Below are positions 5,264-51,622 of a stretch of DNA of 64,000 nt, piece by piece; position 1 is the stretch's first letter, and each line of letters starts with the position of its first letter. This DNA comes from Armatimonadota bacterium. Lineage in GTDB: Bacteria > Armatimonadota > SYMT01. Made by a program: the position numbers and the translations under genes. The notes beneath the pieces are model-generated. The model saw only the letters and a list, made by a program, of their open reading frames with translations. It was not told the DNA's origin and did not search any database. Location of the stretch: contig JBKBRF010000013.1 of NCBI GenBank assembly GCA_046292385.1, positions 1 through 64,000 of the forward strand, in the 5' to 3' direction.

Positions 5264-5313
5264 GAAAGGCTAAAGCCCCTTAAAGGCTAAAGGCTAAAGG
5301 CTAAAGTCCGAAC
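5264..5313. repeat. AAAGGCT heptamer tandem repeat ending in TCCGAAC
   Basis: gaaaggctaaagccccttaaaggctaaaggctaaaggctaaagtccgaac directly after the stop codon. Confidence 0.85.
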
Positions 5314-5426
5314 CCTCCGTGAACGGTAGATCCTGCTCCTGCTCTTGCTCGCTGGCGACCCTCGTTGCTTCCGCACGTCCTCGCCGGCTCGGGCCGCGGG
5401 GCGTAGCAGTACGACGGCGGCGGCAG

Positions 5427-5627
5427 CTACCTGCCGCCGCCGTCGGGCCGGCTTGCCGACGGCATGCTGTTCAGCTTGTCCGGGTTGGCGGGCGCCGGTC
5501 GGGCGTCGGCGGCGGCCGGCGGCGCCGCGTCGCGGGTCGGGTCCTCGGCACAGCCGGAGAGCGTCGCAGCCGGGACCCAGACGACCGCGAGCCAGCCGGT
5601 GAGCGCTGCCAGGCGAAGCGACTTCAT
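5427..5627 (-). CDS. Small Pro/Ala-rich lipoprotein (66 aa)
   Basis: [26 protein letters not shown] lipobox. ATGA overlap with the DUF1559 stop at 5624-5627. Confidence 0.7.
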
Positions 5628-6499
5628 TCCAGGTCCCAGAGATACTTGTTGAGATCCACGATGCGGATCTCCCGGTTGTTCTTGTTCACGTGCCAGTCCG
5701 TGCCCGCCGCCAGCTGGCCCGCGGTCATGAACTTGACGTGGCCGTCCACGAAGGCGACGGTGCCGCCCAGGTTTCCGTGGCGGGGCTGCTCGAAGCCCCC
5801 ATACGGGCCGAACCGCGCGCCCTGCCCCCAGGCGCCGTTGTTCCAGGTGCAGCCGTCCGGGCTGGTGTGGGTGGCCGGCGCCTCCACCAGGTAGTAACCG
5901 CCGTTCGCCGGGTAAAGCGTGCTGGAGTTGGTCCACGCGCCCGCTCCCGGCGCGAACGCCATCCCGGTGAACATGACCGTCTCCGCCGGCTTGCTGATCC
6001 GCGGCGTCGGGGTCGGCGGCCCGGACTGCAGCCTGACGGTGTCGAACTGCGCGCAGCTCTCGGCCCAGTTCATGTAGGTGAAGTTCCAGCCGTAGCCCTG
6101 CCAGAGCGAGAGGTTCTGCGGCAGCGCCAGCCGCGGATCGCGCCAGACGGAGAAGCCGCTGGCGGTAGCGTCGACCATATTCGGGCAGCGGAAGAGCTGA
6201 TACCCCTTGACATACGGCTCGATCAGCCCGGCCCAGGAGCGGCGGTCCGCCCCGGAGGCGCCGTTGTACGCCAGGGGCATCACCTCGTCGTAATCCTGAC
6301 AGTACATCATCACCGCGCTGCCGATCTGCCTGGCATTGGAGAGGCACTGCGCCTGGCGGGCCTTCTCCCGTGCCTGGGCAAAGACCGGAAACAGGATTGC
6401 GGCGAGGATGGCGATGATCGCAATCACCACCAGCAGCTCGATCAAGGTAAATGCGCGTCTTCGCGCAGACGGCAGCGGGGCACTGGGCACGCGGGACAT
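5624..6499 (-). CDS. DUF1559 prepilin-type N-methylation / H-X9-DG protein (copy 1, divergent)
   Basis: [33 protein letters not shown] and C-terminal [17 protein letters not shown]. Confidence 0.93.
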
Positions 6500-6710
6500 G
6501 GAGCTTCGCCTTTCCTGTTGAAGTTGCTCGCAGCTACTACCGGCACGGAGCCCGGCCCCGGCGCAGGGCGACCCCGCATGGAAAACGGGCGGGCGCCTGG
6601 CTTCGGTCTAAGGAATATCTAAGTAGACTCCCCCGTGCGGCGAAGCGGGGTGTGGAGCGGCTCCGAGGCGCTGGAGCCGGCTTTCGAGGCTCGTAACAGG
6701 TCTGGAGTCG

Positions 6711-48540: not shown

Positions 48541-50787
48541 TTAGTCGCTGCGAACGCAGAAGCGACGTTCGGCGCAGTGGGAGCCGGGCGCCGCTTCGGG
48601 CGGGACGGGGGTGAGGTACTCCACGTCGAACTCCACCTCACGGCAGATCGGATAGAAGACATCCGGCCCGAAGAGCAGGTAGAGCGCGAGGGTGTAGGGC
48701 CGGTCATTGACGTAGGGGAGCGATTCCGCCCGCTGCCAGAGCCGCCGGACCCAGGCGGCGCAGAGGAGCTCCAGCCGGAGGTCCACCGCGGCGACCGCTT
48801 CCTCCAGGGCCGTGTCCTCCGGAAACGAGAGGATGCGCGGGCTCCCCGCTTCCGCCGAGAGCCGCCGCCGCTCCGGCAGCCGCCGGCGACGCCGCTCCAG
48901 CAGCTCCTCACGCTCCGCCAGCAAGCGCTCGATACATTCCACCGCCGCGGCGGGGAGCTCACGGCCCAGGCGCTCCAGCCGTTCTCGCGCCTCCGGGTCG
49001 GCGCCGAGCTGACCGCACAGCTTCTCCAGCCGCGGATCGACGCGGCGCGCGGCGGAGAGATCCCCTCCGCGCGCGTTGAGACACAACAGCCGCGCCAGGT
49101 GGACCTGCTGTCCCGGCTCGCAGCGGGCGAGCAGCTCCAGATCGGCGCGCGCCTCGGCGGCCACCTCTCGCCAGCGGAGGGCGATCTCCCGGCACAAGGC
49201 GGAGGGACCGAGGGCGGAGCGGAGGAACACCGGCAGCCGCAGCGGCAGCTCTCCCAGGGCGGAGAGGCGATCGAGCGCGTTCAGCCCGATCCGGATCAGC
49301 AGCCCGGTCGGGTGGCGGAGCACTCCCCGCGCGCGGAGGCCGCCGAGGAGGTGATCGACCATCGGCGTGTACTTGCTCCCCTGCCGCGGCAGCCCCAACC
49401 CACGCGGAGAGCGCTGCATCTCCGCGGCGAAGGTCGCCGCCTTCCCGACGATCGCCAGCTCCGCCGTGGAGGGGAGGTGGTCCAGGAGCGCCCGCGCGAA
49501 ATCGTAGGCCGAGCGGACCAGCCCGTCGGCCTGCACGGTGTGGCTGCCGGCGCTCGGGTTGGAGAGCGTGATCGTGGTCCGCTCCACGCCGGAGAGCTCG
49601 ATGCCGAAGCGATAGACCGGCGTCCCGTGTCCCCCCGGCGCGAACTCGACGAAGAACGGCGGGGCATACTCGCCCGTCTCCGGCCGGTACTTCATCCGCT
49701 GCAGGCCGTAGCCGACCCGGTTCAGCGCCTCGTTGTACGCGTCGGTGAACTCCCCCGGGTGGCGGAGCGCCAGGTCGAGGAAGAAGTGGAGGGTCTCCTC
49801 CGGCCGGCGGAGGTCGTCCAGCTCCGCGCGGCTGATGCCGTTGAAGTGGCTGGCGCGGTCCAGATCGACCCGGTCCGACGGGAAGACCTGCGCGGTGAGC
49901 CAGCGCCCGAGCGCCGCCTGGAAGTCGGCCAGGCTCGCCGCGGGGTAGTCGCGCAGGAGCTCCTCGCCCCAGGCCGCCAGCGCGCGGGCGCGAGCCTTCA
50001 CCGCGCGCCGGTGGGAGGCGCCGGCCGCCATCCGCATGGCCCCGGCCGCCGCGGCGCGGACCAGCAGCCACGCGCCGGCGGCGCGCAGCTCCGGCTCGCT
50101 CGCGGGGATGCTGGAGAGGATGACGTTTTCGTTCTCCACCGGCACGACGCCGTAGAGCCCGTCGGTCTTGGTGAGCGCGTAATAGAGCGCGGCGTCCGGA
50201 TAGCCGGAGAACGCCTCCCGCATCTCCTCCCGGTTCACGGCGGGACCCAGGCGCGTCACGGCATCCGCGGCCGTGTCCGCCGCCGGCAGCGCCACGCCCA
50301 GCGCCCGCAGGGCCTCGTCCCACCCCGCATCCGGAGTGAGACTGCTGCCGAGACGGACCCACTCCGCCGCGAGCCGGTGCAGCGGCAGACCGGCGGCGGC
50401 GTACTGCTCCGGAGAGACCGCCTCGGTGAAGAAGAGCCCGTGGGAGATGTCCTGGTGCTCCCAGACGGCGCCGGCGCGGCCGCGGTAGTAGTCTTCCGTC
50501 AGCACGTAGCGCCGCCCCTGTTTGCGGAAGTGGCGCGCCAGGCGGGCGTCGCAGGTGCCCAGGCGCTCGTCCTGGATGAAGAAGGTGATCTCGGAGGCGC
50601 TCTCCCCCACCGCCCGCGCGAGACAGTGGTTGGCGAGAACGGCATCCCACGCCTGGTTCTGGTCGCCCTTGAAGACGTGGAGCACTTCCCGCGCGGCAAG
50701 CGCCTCTCGGATCTCGGCGGGCCGGTCGGTGGTAGCGCGGAGGGTGACGAAGTTGTCTCCCTGGTTGATCACCGTCGCGGGCTTCAT
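48541..50787 (-). CDS. Hypothetical protein, possibly distant BshC-like ligase fold
   Basis: 748-aa ORF with host-like codon usage and a C-terminal coiled coil. The function is weak inference only. Confidence 0.7.
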   Translation of the reverse strand: MKPATVINQGDNFVTLRATTDRPAEIREALAAREVLHVFKGDQNQAWDAVLANHCLARAVGESASEITFFIQDERLGTCDARLARHFRKQGRRYVLTEDYYRGRAGAVWEHQDISHGLFFTEAVSPEQYAAAGLPLHRLAAEWVRLGSSLTPDAGWDEALRALGVALPAADTAADAVTRLGPAVNREEMREAFSGYPDAALYYALTKTDGLYGVVPVENENVILSSIPASEPELRAAGAWLLVRAAAAGAMRMAAGASHRRAVKARARALAAWGEELLRDYPAASLADFQAALGRWLTAQVFPSDRVDLDRASHFNGISRAELDDLRRPEETLHFFLDLALRHPGEFTDAYNEALNRVGYGLQRMKYRPETGEYAPPFFVEFAPGGHGTPVYRFGIELSGVERTTITLSNPSAGSHTVQADGLVRSAYDFARALLDHLPSTAELAIVGKAATFAAEMQRSPRGLGLPRQGSKYTPMVDHLLGGLRARGVLRHPTGLLIRIGLNALDRLSALGELPLRLPVFLRSALGPSALCREIALRWREVAAEARADLELLARCEPGQQVHLARLLCLNARGGDLSAARRVDPRLEKLCGQLGADPEARERLERLGRELPAAAVECIERLLAEREELLERRRRRLPERRRLSAEAGSPRILSFPEDTALEEAVAAVDLRLELLCAAWVRRLWQRAESLPYVNDRPYTLALYLLFGPDVFYPICREVEFDVEYLTPVPPEAAPGSHCAERRFCVRSD

Positions 50788-50944
50788 AGCGGTGAGGCTC
50801 TCCAGTGAGCGCGGGGCAGCAAATCGAACTCCAACAGAGCCGCGCGTCGCCGGAGCCGGCGGGGCGAGCCCGGACGAAGTTTACCGGCCTGTTTTTCGGG
50901 AGTAAAGGCGGGCAATCATCCGAGAGCCCTCCACCCTCCTCCGC

Positions 50945-51385
50945 CTACGGCACCTGCGCCGGGGTGCGCGCCGCCTCCACGGCGCGGTCCGCCGCGCTCT
51001 TGACCCGGCCCAGGCGCTTCGCCAGGTCCCCGATCGTCCGCGCCTTGCGCGAGAGATCGACTTTCTGCTCCCCGATCGCTTCCGCGGCCTGCGAGCCCTG
51101 CGGCTTCAGCTCCGCGGCGATGCGGCGAGTGGTCTCCACGCGCTGCTTCACCTTCTGGGTCACCCCCTTCACGCGGCCCGCCATCGCGGTGCCTTCCCGC
51201 GCGGCGGAGATCGCCATTGCCTTCCCGAGCTCGGCGAGCGCCTGGCCTTCCTTCACCGCCGGGGTGACCTGCCGCCGCGCCCGCTTGAAGGTCTGCAGCA
51301 TTAGCCAGCCCGCCACGCCCATGGCGATCAGGGACAGCACCTGCAGCCCCAGCAACACCAGGAACACGATATCGCCCGTGGTCAT
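50945..51385 (-). CDS. Single-TM basic helical protein (general-stress-protein-like)
   Basis: AGGAGG RBS, N-terminal TM, and GTTT-N16-GGGTAT at 51438-51413. Confidence 0.75.
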   Translation of the reverse strand: MTTGDIVFLVLLGLQVLSLIAMGVAGWLMLQTFKRARRQVTPAVKEGQALAELGKAMAISAAREGTAMAGRVKGVTQKVKQRVETTRRIAAELKPQGSQAAEAIGEQKVDLSRKARTIGDLAKRLGRVKSAADRAVEAARTPAQVP

Positions 51386-51480
51386 CGTTGCGCCTCCTGT
51401 CCGAAAGACTGTATACCCGGGCCCGCCCCCCTCGAAACGGCCGCTTGCTTGGCCTGGACGCGCCACCTCACTCCTGGATA

Positions 51481-51622
51481 TGTGGGAGTGGGAGCGAGCG
51501 AGCGTGGGAGAGTGGGAAACCCGCTCCCGTCTGTTTTCAGGTTGCAGGTTAACAGGTTGCAGGTTCCGAACTCCGCCTCCCGTGTTCCCAACCTGAAACC
51601 TGCCAACTTGCTAACCTGCAAC
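51481..51622. repeat. GTGGGAG repeats plus inverted CAGGTTG heptamer element
   Basis: caggttgcaggttaacaggttgcaggttccgaac ... aacctgaaacctgccaacttgctaacctgcaac. Same family as 29438-29592. Confidence 0.8.

Follow-up and report, generated by a model that had tools for sequence, protein, structure and literature searches.

The 64,000-nucleotide stretch analysed here (the window) is positions 1-64,000 of contig C13 of an Armatimonadota genome, a 7.04-Mb assembly designated G000 (69% G+C, 91 contigs, 98.45% complete). It carries short tandem arrays built from unrelated units, and many arrays of this genome are joined to a single word, TCCGAAC, which with the next C forms the 8-nt block TCCGAACC (hereafter the tag). 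Tentatively, and with a little less than even confidence, we regard TCCGAACC as a tag that marks the junction in a single lineage-specific superfamily of mosaic DNA repeats, small and non-autonomous, in which it would act in cis as a double-stranded DNA site for recognition or crossover. Two observations are new here, the occurrence of the tag at array edges and the presence of an in-frame element of the same kind in 19 of 42 paralogues of the PSD1/DUF1553 family.

Arrays were collected over the whole genome with Tandem Repeats Finder (TRF), and merged non-coding arrays of period 6-9 (n = 1516) were considered with flanks of 25 nt, totalling 69.4 kb. TCCGAAC reaches 3.73 copies per kb in these flanks (259 copies), vs. 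0.223 per kb in other intergenic DNA and 0.121 per kb in coding DNA. An unbiased count of 7-mers in the flanks ranks it first, at 16.7-fold, and the next-ranked 7-mers are mostly its own overlapping extensions (CCGAACC, CGAACCC). The exact tag lies within 25 nt of 301 of the 1516 arrays (19.9%), spread over 70 of 325 unit variants. A previous description of the window made from its letters alone (the sequence-only reading) had noticed that arrays with unrelated units have one adjoining word in common, an observation that would fall if the word were no more frequent near arrays than in other intergenic DNA; the flank count and the 7-mer ranking show, over the whole genome, that it is far more frequent there. 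All the arrays and units that it had listed were also recovered by TRF.

Within the window, TCCGAAC is not over-represented, with 12 copies for 8.7 expected and at least 12 in 17 of 100 shuffles. Its placement is non-random. Six of the 12 copies fall inside the 1036 bp made up of non-coding arrays and their 25-nt flanks (binomial p = 1.5e-8), and a seventh, at 16610, adjoins an array within a gene. The copies are found at 1244, 5307, 16610, 18746, 29505, 51565, and 53476 and, on the minus strand, at 33176, 34021, 34574, 54625, and 61030. Every exact copy reported in the sequence-only reading is real and one, at 33176, had been overlooked; the near-variants also stand, by inspection, where it had located them (TCCGAGC at 18854, its complement at 36802, and GTTCGAA at 16658 and 40972).

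The block common to these sites is short and has abrupt edges. When 269 sites are oriented by motif strand, the information content is restricted to TCCGAAC and the next C, and the array is found upstream only (92 sites), downstream only (102), or on both sides (75). Among 872 pairs of sites at least 75% alike in the right-hand 24 nt, 403 are less than 45% alike on the left; reciprocally, of the 1830 pairs that are alike on the left, 1048 have dissimilar right-hand sides. The steps in positional identity fall precisely at -1/0 and +7/+8, although the pairs were picked for one-sided difference, which partly builds the steps in and leaves their sharpness alone as informative. TCCGAACC is therefore the sole sequence common to left and right modules that are otherwise unrelated, and one word common to unrelated modules fits a common recognition or crossover site.

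Many pairings of upstream units with downstream modules are observed. Elements of type A (28 copies) contain a purine-rich array (GGGATGA, TAAAGGC, GAGTGGG or CAGGTTG), the tag, a small stem-loop, a CT-rich hexamer array, and a conserved tail; among these copies, the same right-hand module stands behind four different left arrays. Type B, (CAGGTTG)n-tag-loop-(CAACCTG)n, is a long hairpin. In type C, the tag is followed by CTGATTCACC and (GCAGAGRAC)n, with complementary arms beyond. Type D is composed of the tag, GAA, and (CGCGAAGG)n, and type E of (GGGGATG)n, the tag, and a CT-rich array. Types B and C are predicted by folding to be very stable hairpins. Three of the six window elements that were folded are not hairpins, and a stem immediately after the tag (-8 kcal/mol or lower in the next 28 nt) is predicted at 21% of the 269 sites, with a mean of -5.3 vs. 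-4.3 for shuffles.

In type A copies, the purine-rich arms (GGATGAR, TAAAGGC, GAGTAGG) hold stop codons that cycle through all three frames, and several host genes seem to terminate at the array or within a few bases of it; such elements may supply or replace the stop codon of the host. A number of other identities were considered and rejected. The conserved type A tail is not an opposite-strand coding sequence, its ORFs falling in different frames, and the arrays were not born as target-site duplications, since the flanking arrays are inverted or unrelated rather than direct copies. By inspection, the tag has the wrong invariant base for the T-loop of a tRNA T-arm, the wrong position and orientation for a promoter -35 box of the extracytoplasmic function (ECF) type, an inconsistent overlap with GANTC methylation sites, and none of the genome-wide over-representation of a DNA-uptake sequence.

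With respect to genes, 150 of the 254 intergenic tag sites lie between tandem genes (76 sense and 74 antisense), and convergent and divergent pairs hold 74 and 30, respectively; the corresponding background counts of intergenic regions are 2132, 637, and 702. Rich between convergent and poor between divergent genes, the sites thus display a preference for 3' ends without a strand preference. The motif strand is likewise unbiased with respect to GC skew and to local gene-strand bias. The view that arrays sit mostly just after stop codons holds for those at 5264, 18746, 29472, 34574, and 51538 and fails for 16575-16697 and 36721-36870, which are in frame within PSD1 genes. The clpP-clpX spacer (29439-29793) contains some hairpin in every relative examined; this hairpin carries arrays, of different units, in G000 and in G005, and is plain in G001, G004, and G006. 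It may be that array hairpins stand in the place of ordinary 3'-end stem-loops.

The two in-frame elements, at 16575-16700 and 36717-36870, interrupt the PSD1 (DUF1553) domain between profile positions 64 and 65. Their two host proteins, both of the PSCyt1-PSCyt2-PSD1 build, share about 45% overall identity. Paired tblastn hits to both insert flanks identified 42 PSD1 paralogues in G000, among which 20 have no insert, 3 have 21 nt, and 19 have 144-198 nt. The insert length is a multiple of three in all 19 cases and the ORFs remain open, without stops inside; by inspection, the composition of the arms bars stop codons on the coding strand. The 19 inserts are built of (GACRGAGA)n, the tag, and a core, followed either by GGTTCGRA-(TCATCCC)n or by the complementary (TCTCYGTC)n. 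Five inserts, designated type iv, match six type iii inserts in reverse complement, with a mean local score of 99 over 122 nt and 77% identity, vs. 51 for the same strand. Hence, the same hairpin stands either way round at a single codon.

On a maximum-likelihood tree of the flanks, the presence of the insert is scattered: parsimony counts 11 changes, at least 8 of which are forced by well-supported branches. Beside the insert, the insert-bearing paralogues have LLD(Y/F)LASVF...GLGWS in common, and the additional similarity among them reaches no further than about 30 nt on each side (.73 vs..66 and.63 vs..57;.565 vs..564 distally). Such a pattern is expected of short gene-conversion tracts, which it suggests, and convergent selection on the insert flanks could also have caused it. 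Overall, the inserts resemble one another no more than the genes that carry them do (mean identity.61). The exact tag is kept in 13 of the 19 (15 copies in 3129 nt, or 4.8 per kb), and the tag blocks are better conserved than the core between them. The codons of the empty site, F-V-R (TTCGTCCGC), resemble the tag, but by inspection only 1 of the 20 empty paralogues is within one mismatch of it. As regards the first PSD1 gene of the window, its ORF (13354-17316) encodes 1320 aa from a GTG start and the database protein of the same gene, P0003, has 1158 aa; the true start is probably downstream.

Inserts are found at the same codon in G005, where they measure 138-249 nt and are multiples of three in 5 of 5 cases. 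These inserts have other arrays (GCAGGGG, TTACGCA, CCCCAGC) together with a homologous core, which in one of them lies between an exact TCCGAAC...GTTCGGA pair. The largest one or two inserts in each of G001, G003, and G004 (15-60 nt) and in G002 (96-150 nt) are non-repetitive. Among 78 metagenomic homologues, every gap is a multiple of three and seven are at least 60 nt long, five of these being array hairpins of other units at the same codon; none has the tag. When compared with 5.8 billion proteins, the G000 insert region gave 7 matches with no listed source, 4 of which can be matched to this assembly (C13 and C4). Among the papers listed by a literature search, none dealt with array inserts in DUF1553 proteins.

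The distribution of the tag among array families is uneven. It accompanies 37 of 90 GCAGGTT arrays, 26 of 79 AAAGGCT arrays, 30 of 57 AGGGATG arrays, and all 8 arrays of ACAGAGCGC, and none of the 88 GCGTATT, 24 ACACCCT, 24 AAACCCT, and 22 ACACGCT arrays. Tag-less families bear conserved flanks of their own. For instance, the TACGCAA/TACGGAA arrays (96, none with the tag; seen on C1, C2, C3, and C5 of G000) are always preceded by a conserved leader of about 40 nt that starts with GCCCGGCACGACG, and the type A tail closes with a similar word, CCGGCACG. The tag is thus not needed to make arrays. Arrays of this vocabulary (TCATCCC, TACGCAA, AGGGGATG, and others) also occur at residues 30-110 of about 20 called G000 ORFs, probably because mis-called starts overrun 5' leader elements; a few lie deeper, at residue 243 of C14_102456, residue 226 of C54_35512, and residue 228 of C85_2343.

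Other genera were sampled by scoring TRF rows of period 7 or 8 for a tag within 25 nt. Such rows amount to 217 of 1149 in the whole G000 genome, 0 of 52 in 600 kb of G005, 0 of 37 in 129 kb of G016 (another family), 0 of 1 in 149 kb of G003, and 0 of 0 in 160 kb of G001. A single G005 site does carry (CAGGTTG)n-TCCGAAC. The G005 arrays of the GGTTGAA/CAGGTTG type recurrently adjoin another conserved module, in which CAGGGGTTGAAG comes after a short GC hairpin; this other genus thus has a different junction module. No comparable sequence came up when five relatives were searched by BLAST with the type A element. The count of TCCGAACC relative to its reversed control is high across the whole family, with sampled copies that are not at arrays, and this control was set aside as uninformative.

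The arm vocabulary is also that of gene cassettes. G000 has 8 PF05635 (four-helix-bundle) and 4 PF13366 (GxxExxY) genes, none of them in the window. The association of similar arrays with these two gene families, put forward in the sequence-only reading for other bacteria, holds in G000, where all 12 genes lie between same-vocabulary arrays (11 inverted pairs and 1 direct, by inspection). The direct arrangement is that of a PF05635 gene (G000:C7:141045-141666). The tag stands at the arm edge in 4 of the 12 cassettes: after the 5' arm on C43 and C10, where the array-tag junction abuts two PF05635 genes, before the 3' arm and inverted on C1, and as an inverted TCCGAAC...GTTCGGA outer pair that bounds the whole PF13366 cassette on C16. 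As for transposases, PF01797 (Y1/HUH) has five matches in the genome, two of them strong. The C51 Y1 gene is flanked by a private hairpin present in only 2 copies in the genome and unrelated to the tag. This IS200-like gene (G000:C51:25790-26420) follows directly on (GGGATGA)n and then TCCGAGC, a variant of the tag, much as cargo would follow an arm.

The mosaic mini-elements are best read as a lineage-specific expansion, gene-less kin of the intervening-sequence-like (IVS-like) cassettes in which a PF05635 gene (23S rRNA intervening-sequence protein) or a PF13366 gene stands between inverted arrays. Each repeat would consist of two modules that meet at the tag. One would be a short-period array, the arm; the other may be a loop with a complementary arm (making a long hairpin), a four-helix-bundle gene, a core of 40 nt, or a small stem-loop with a hexamer array. 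The tag would be the double-stranded DNA site at which a trans-acting factor recognises or recombines the elements, a proposal that likens it to the GTAG/CGTC tags of repetitive extragenic palindromes (REPs). Once seeded, copies would exchange modules, their loops would flip by recombination between inverted arms, and copies would spread between paralogous sites by gene conversion. Selection would then retain only harmless copies, those lying behind stop codons or those that are stop-free, a multiple of three in length, and placed in a tolerant loop. At the DNA level, this reading is supported by a strand that is independent of transcription (76 vs. 74) and of GC skew, and by the reverse-complementary type iv and type iii inserts.

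Several points weigh against it, besides the partly built-in identity steps. Transposition to new loci is inferred rather than seen. With 80% of the arrays and 8 of the 12 gene cassettes lacking the tag at the arm edge, the tag is dispensable for the architecture. One-mismatch variants (TTCGAAC, GCCGAAC, TCCGAGC, TCCGGAC) are common, as expected of simple decay. The partition into coding and non-coding DNA depends on crude gene calls, 4484 ORFs picked by length and GC3 that make 75% of the genome coding. Profile searches of the genome for reverse transcriptases, HUH proteins, and tyrosine recombinases found no enzyme for the tag. RVT_1 (PF00078) has 0 matches in this 98.45%-complete genome, more divergent reverse-transcriptase models not having been run, and the two good HUH genes have private hairpins without relation to the tag. 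Within 6 kb on either side of the 18 PF00589 tyrosine recombinases, tag and array counts equal the genome mean.

Some of these points would equally be met if TCCGAACC were a frozen junction, that is, a functionless piece of an ancestral element that was amplified here and put on other arms by homologous or microhomology recombination among array-rich repeats. Such an origin, which we judge somewhat unlikely, would agree with a tag-array association confined to G000 among the sampled genomes, with the restriction of the tag to particular unit families while other families bear other conserved flanks in the same way, with the frequency of one-mismatch variants, and with the failure to find an enzyme. 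However, the common block is only 8 nt long and abruptly bounded, no longer common ancestry being visible on either side, and eight bases are short for recombination by homology alone. Moreover, the tag outlasts its neighbours in the coding inserts, where it is exact in 13 of 19 at 61% overall identity, and it survives across genera (G000 and G005).

A homing-type system, distinctly unlikely in our view, would assign an active role to the tag: a trans-acting nuclease would cut there, repair would copy array-armed hairpins into the cut, and in the course of that repair the arrays would expand or be exchanged. The PD-(D/E)XK GxxExxY proteins are the candidate nucleases; full cassettes carry them, and an inverted TCCGAAC pair encloses one such cassette. 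If true, this would account for mosaic breakpoints that fall abruptly at the tag, for a spread resembling conversion that reached 19 PSD1 paralogues in either orientation, and for tags that are kept between genera while the arrays beside them change; bacterial heptamer arrays would then be the footprint of a new class of homing element.

The 3'-end preference invites an explanation at the RNA level, in which the array hairpins are the 3'-end stem-loops of this lineage (terminators, stabilisers, or processing sites) and UCCGAACC is a loop-closing signal for an RNA-binding protein or an RNase. Elements just past stop codons, rich between convergent and poor between divergent genes, very stable folds, and some hairpin at clpP-clpX in every relative examined all point in this direction. 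Against this stand the random orientation of the motif with respect to flanking genes (76 vs. 74), the three of six folded window elements that are not hairpins, the low frequency of stems beside the tag (21% of sites), the lack of any Rfam match in the window, and the elements located inside ORFs, and we consider an RNA element improbable.

The sequence-only reading had imagined one recognition or priming site that generates or mobilises arrays; its recognition part agrees with a word common to unrelated modules, whereas a repeat-writing enzyme that primes or nicks at TCCGAAC and synthesises adjoining arrays of varying unit is highly improbable, since, even if arrays directly abut the tag on one side and the PSD1 site keeps its tags and core between genera while array units differ, most arrays (all but 301 of 1516) and whole abundant families have no tag, array-rich relatives have none (0 of 52 rows in G005, 0 of 37 in G016), the unit vocabulary is common to untagged cassettes and to another genus, the array precedes the tag in some types and follows it in others, and no PF00078 reverse transcriptase was found.

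Within the window, the first element, at 5264-5390 on the plus strand, is one of the 28 type A mosaics and directly follows the stop codon of a SpoIIE-domain gene. It comprises (TAAAGGC)n (5281-5306), TCCGAAC (5307-5313), a small stem-loop, (TCCTGC)n (5331-5350), and the conserved tail to about 5385, and is not a hairpin overall (folding z -0.17). A second type A element, at 40905-41016 on the minus strand, has the variant tag TTCGAAC (GTTCGAA at 40972 on the plus strand), upstream of which, on the minus strand, lies (GGATGAA)n (plus-strand 40979-41016); by inspection, its minus-strand order of array, tag, stem-loop, and CT-rich hexamers is that of type A.

The plus-strand PSD1 insert (16575-16700, within ORF 13354-17316) has 168 nt and is open. 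It reads (GACAGAGA)n, TCCGAAC (16610-16616), the 40-nt core, GTTCGAA (16658-16664), and (TCATCCC)n (16667-16697), and the stretch 16566-16705 is not a hairpin (z +1.65). The minus-strand insert (36717-36870, within ORF 36069-39284) has 183 nt and the same build, with the variant tags TCCGAGC and GTTCGAG.

Behind the stop codon of a DUF1501 gene, a nested double hairpin of type C occupies 18742-19060 on the plus strand: TCCGAACC at 18746 precedes the outer arm (CACAGAGNN)n, TCCGAGCC at 18854 precedes the inner arm (GCAGAGGAC)n, and complementary arms follow at 18984-19055. The fold of 18739-19065 reaches -186 kcal/mol (z -8.36), which 0 of 100 shuffles equalled. Between clpP and clpX, with lon downstream, the plus-strand type B hairpin at 29440-29585 has an outer stem around the arms (CAGGTTR)n (29472-29498) and (CAACCTG)n (29527-29553), and TCCGAAC (29505-29511) at the 5' edge of the loop (z -6.96; 0 of 200 shuffles equal). 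A further plus-strand type B hairpin, at 51486-51640, is enclosed by outer arms of the GAGTGGG type, in the order (GAGTGGG)n (51486-51517), (CAGGTTG)n (51538-51565), TCCGAAC (51565-51571), (CAACCTG)n to about 51622, and CCCACTC; 51478-51627 folds with z -3.19.

Two minus-strand elements remain. Downstream of lon, the mosaic at 33923-34027 reads, on that strand, TCCGAAC (34027-34021), a spacer, (GGGGATG)n (plus-strand 33974-34004), and (CTACTC)n (plus-strand 33923-33959); the stretch 33915-34030 is not a hairpin (z -0.08). In the type D element at 34536-34580, TCCGAAC (34580-34574) lies 7 nt past the stop codon of a minus-strand DUF1501 gene (34587-36053) and is followed by (CGCGAAGG)n, an arrangement that also bounds, as an inverted pair, the GxxExxY cassette of contig C16.

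Catalogues of bacterial heptamer arrays go back decades and, to our knowledge, none has come with a mechanism. In G000, some 300 arrays with unrelated units meet other modules at one abrupt-edged 8-nt word, which provides a concrete and testable candidate for a cis-acting site. The PSD1 inserts are a natural experiment, in which gain, loss, flipping, and arm turnover can be dated against the gene tree, and they show that such repeats can remodel proteins. If the tag were only a frozen junction, the outcome would be a well-documented case of mosaic repeat evolution, of modest interest.

Several known systems resemble these elements in part. Integron attC sites have the consensus RYYYAAC...GTTRRRY. 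They have in common with the inverted pair of G000 a position after genes and 7-nt boxes, AAC and GTT facing inward around a variable core of 40-60 nt. TCCGAAC and GTTCGGA, however, each depart from this consensus at two positions by inspection, and the elements are dispersed singly, with no cluster beside any of the 18 tyrosine recombinases, an IntI-specific model not having been run. Miniature inverted-repeat transposable elements have terminal inverted repeats, a target-site duplication, and a related autonomous insertion sequence. In G000, an inverted TCCGAAC...GTTCGGA pair bounds the C16 cassette and PSD1 cores, and most elements have a single tag; no target-site duplication was seen by inspection of filled sites, and no parent insertion sequence was found. 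A whole-word search of the literature for the four forms of the tag gave one paper, on an unrelated subject.

The tagged REPs of the GTAG and CGTC super-families (Di Nocera et al., 2013, PMC3733652), as presented in the portions of that paper at hand, are closer. Like the G000 elements, they are small dispersed repeats of many families in which a variable structured segment ends, on one side, in a short conserved tag; they are located mainly downstream of genes, between co-directional or convergent ORFs, and sometimes inside genes; CGTC-type REPs, too, have no known transposase there. In contrast, the tag of G000 is TCCGAACC and adjoins a tandem array of 6-9-nt units instead of a 20-40-bp palindrome, and a stem stands next to it in only 21% of the sites. 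No gene for a REP-associated tyrosine transposase (RAYT) is flanked by G000 elements. Measured against REPs and bacterial interspersed mosaic elements, the location 3' of ORFs agrees, while the palindrome with a GTAG/CGTC tag and the repeat-flanked Y1 gene are lacking.

The arrays themselves have the characters of heptamer long simple-sequence repeats (LSSRs) and short tandemly repeated repetitive (STRR) sequences, being tandem 7-nt (5-11-nt) units that are over-represented and mainly intergenic: 740 non-coding vs. 292 coding TRF rows of period 7, and 454 vs. 331 of period 8, for a non-coding share of 25% of the genome. Described examples are the inverted pairs of GGGAATC in Xanthomonas and GGGGAYT in Nostoc (Rehm et al., 2015, PMC4692102) and the TAACTGA repeats (MacGregor, 2015, PMC4679880). 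In the parts of these papers available to us, such repeats share with those of G000 an intergenic position, frequent convergent inverted pairs able to form stem-loops, a patchy distribution, and the absence of a known mechanism. However, these parts report one unit per genome and no common flanking word, whereas G000 has many unit families on one 8-nt tag.

The IVS-like cassettes use the same arm vocabulary as the window elements. The latter contain no gene and several are not hairpins, so that they are at most gene-less relatives of these cassettes. Finally, the PSD1 inserts recall the Rickettsia palindromic elements (RPEs), repeats of about 150 bp that lie in frame in protein genes and add a fold-compatible peptide, according to the sections of the source available (PMC10969869). 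The PSD1 inserts are in-frame repeat elements of about this size that likewise add a peptide segment, keep the frame, and bring no stop codon into the ORF. Yet, as described in the same sections, RPEs occur in many unrelated genes, whereas G000 has 19 copies at one codon of one paralogous family, in both orientations. In addition, the PSD1 inserts are made of 7-8-nt arrays, in which the total length, and not the unit length, is a multiple of three.

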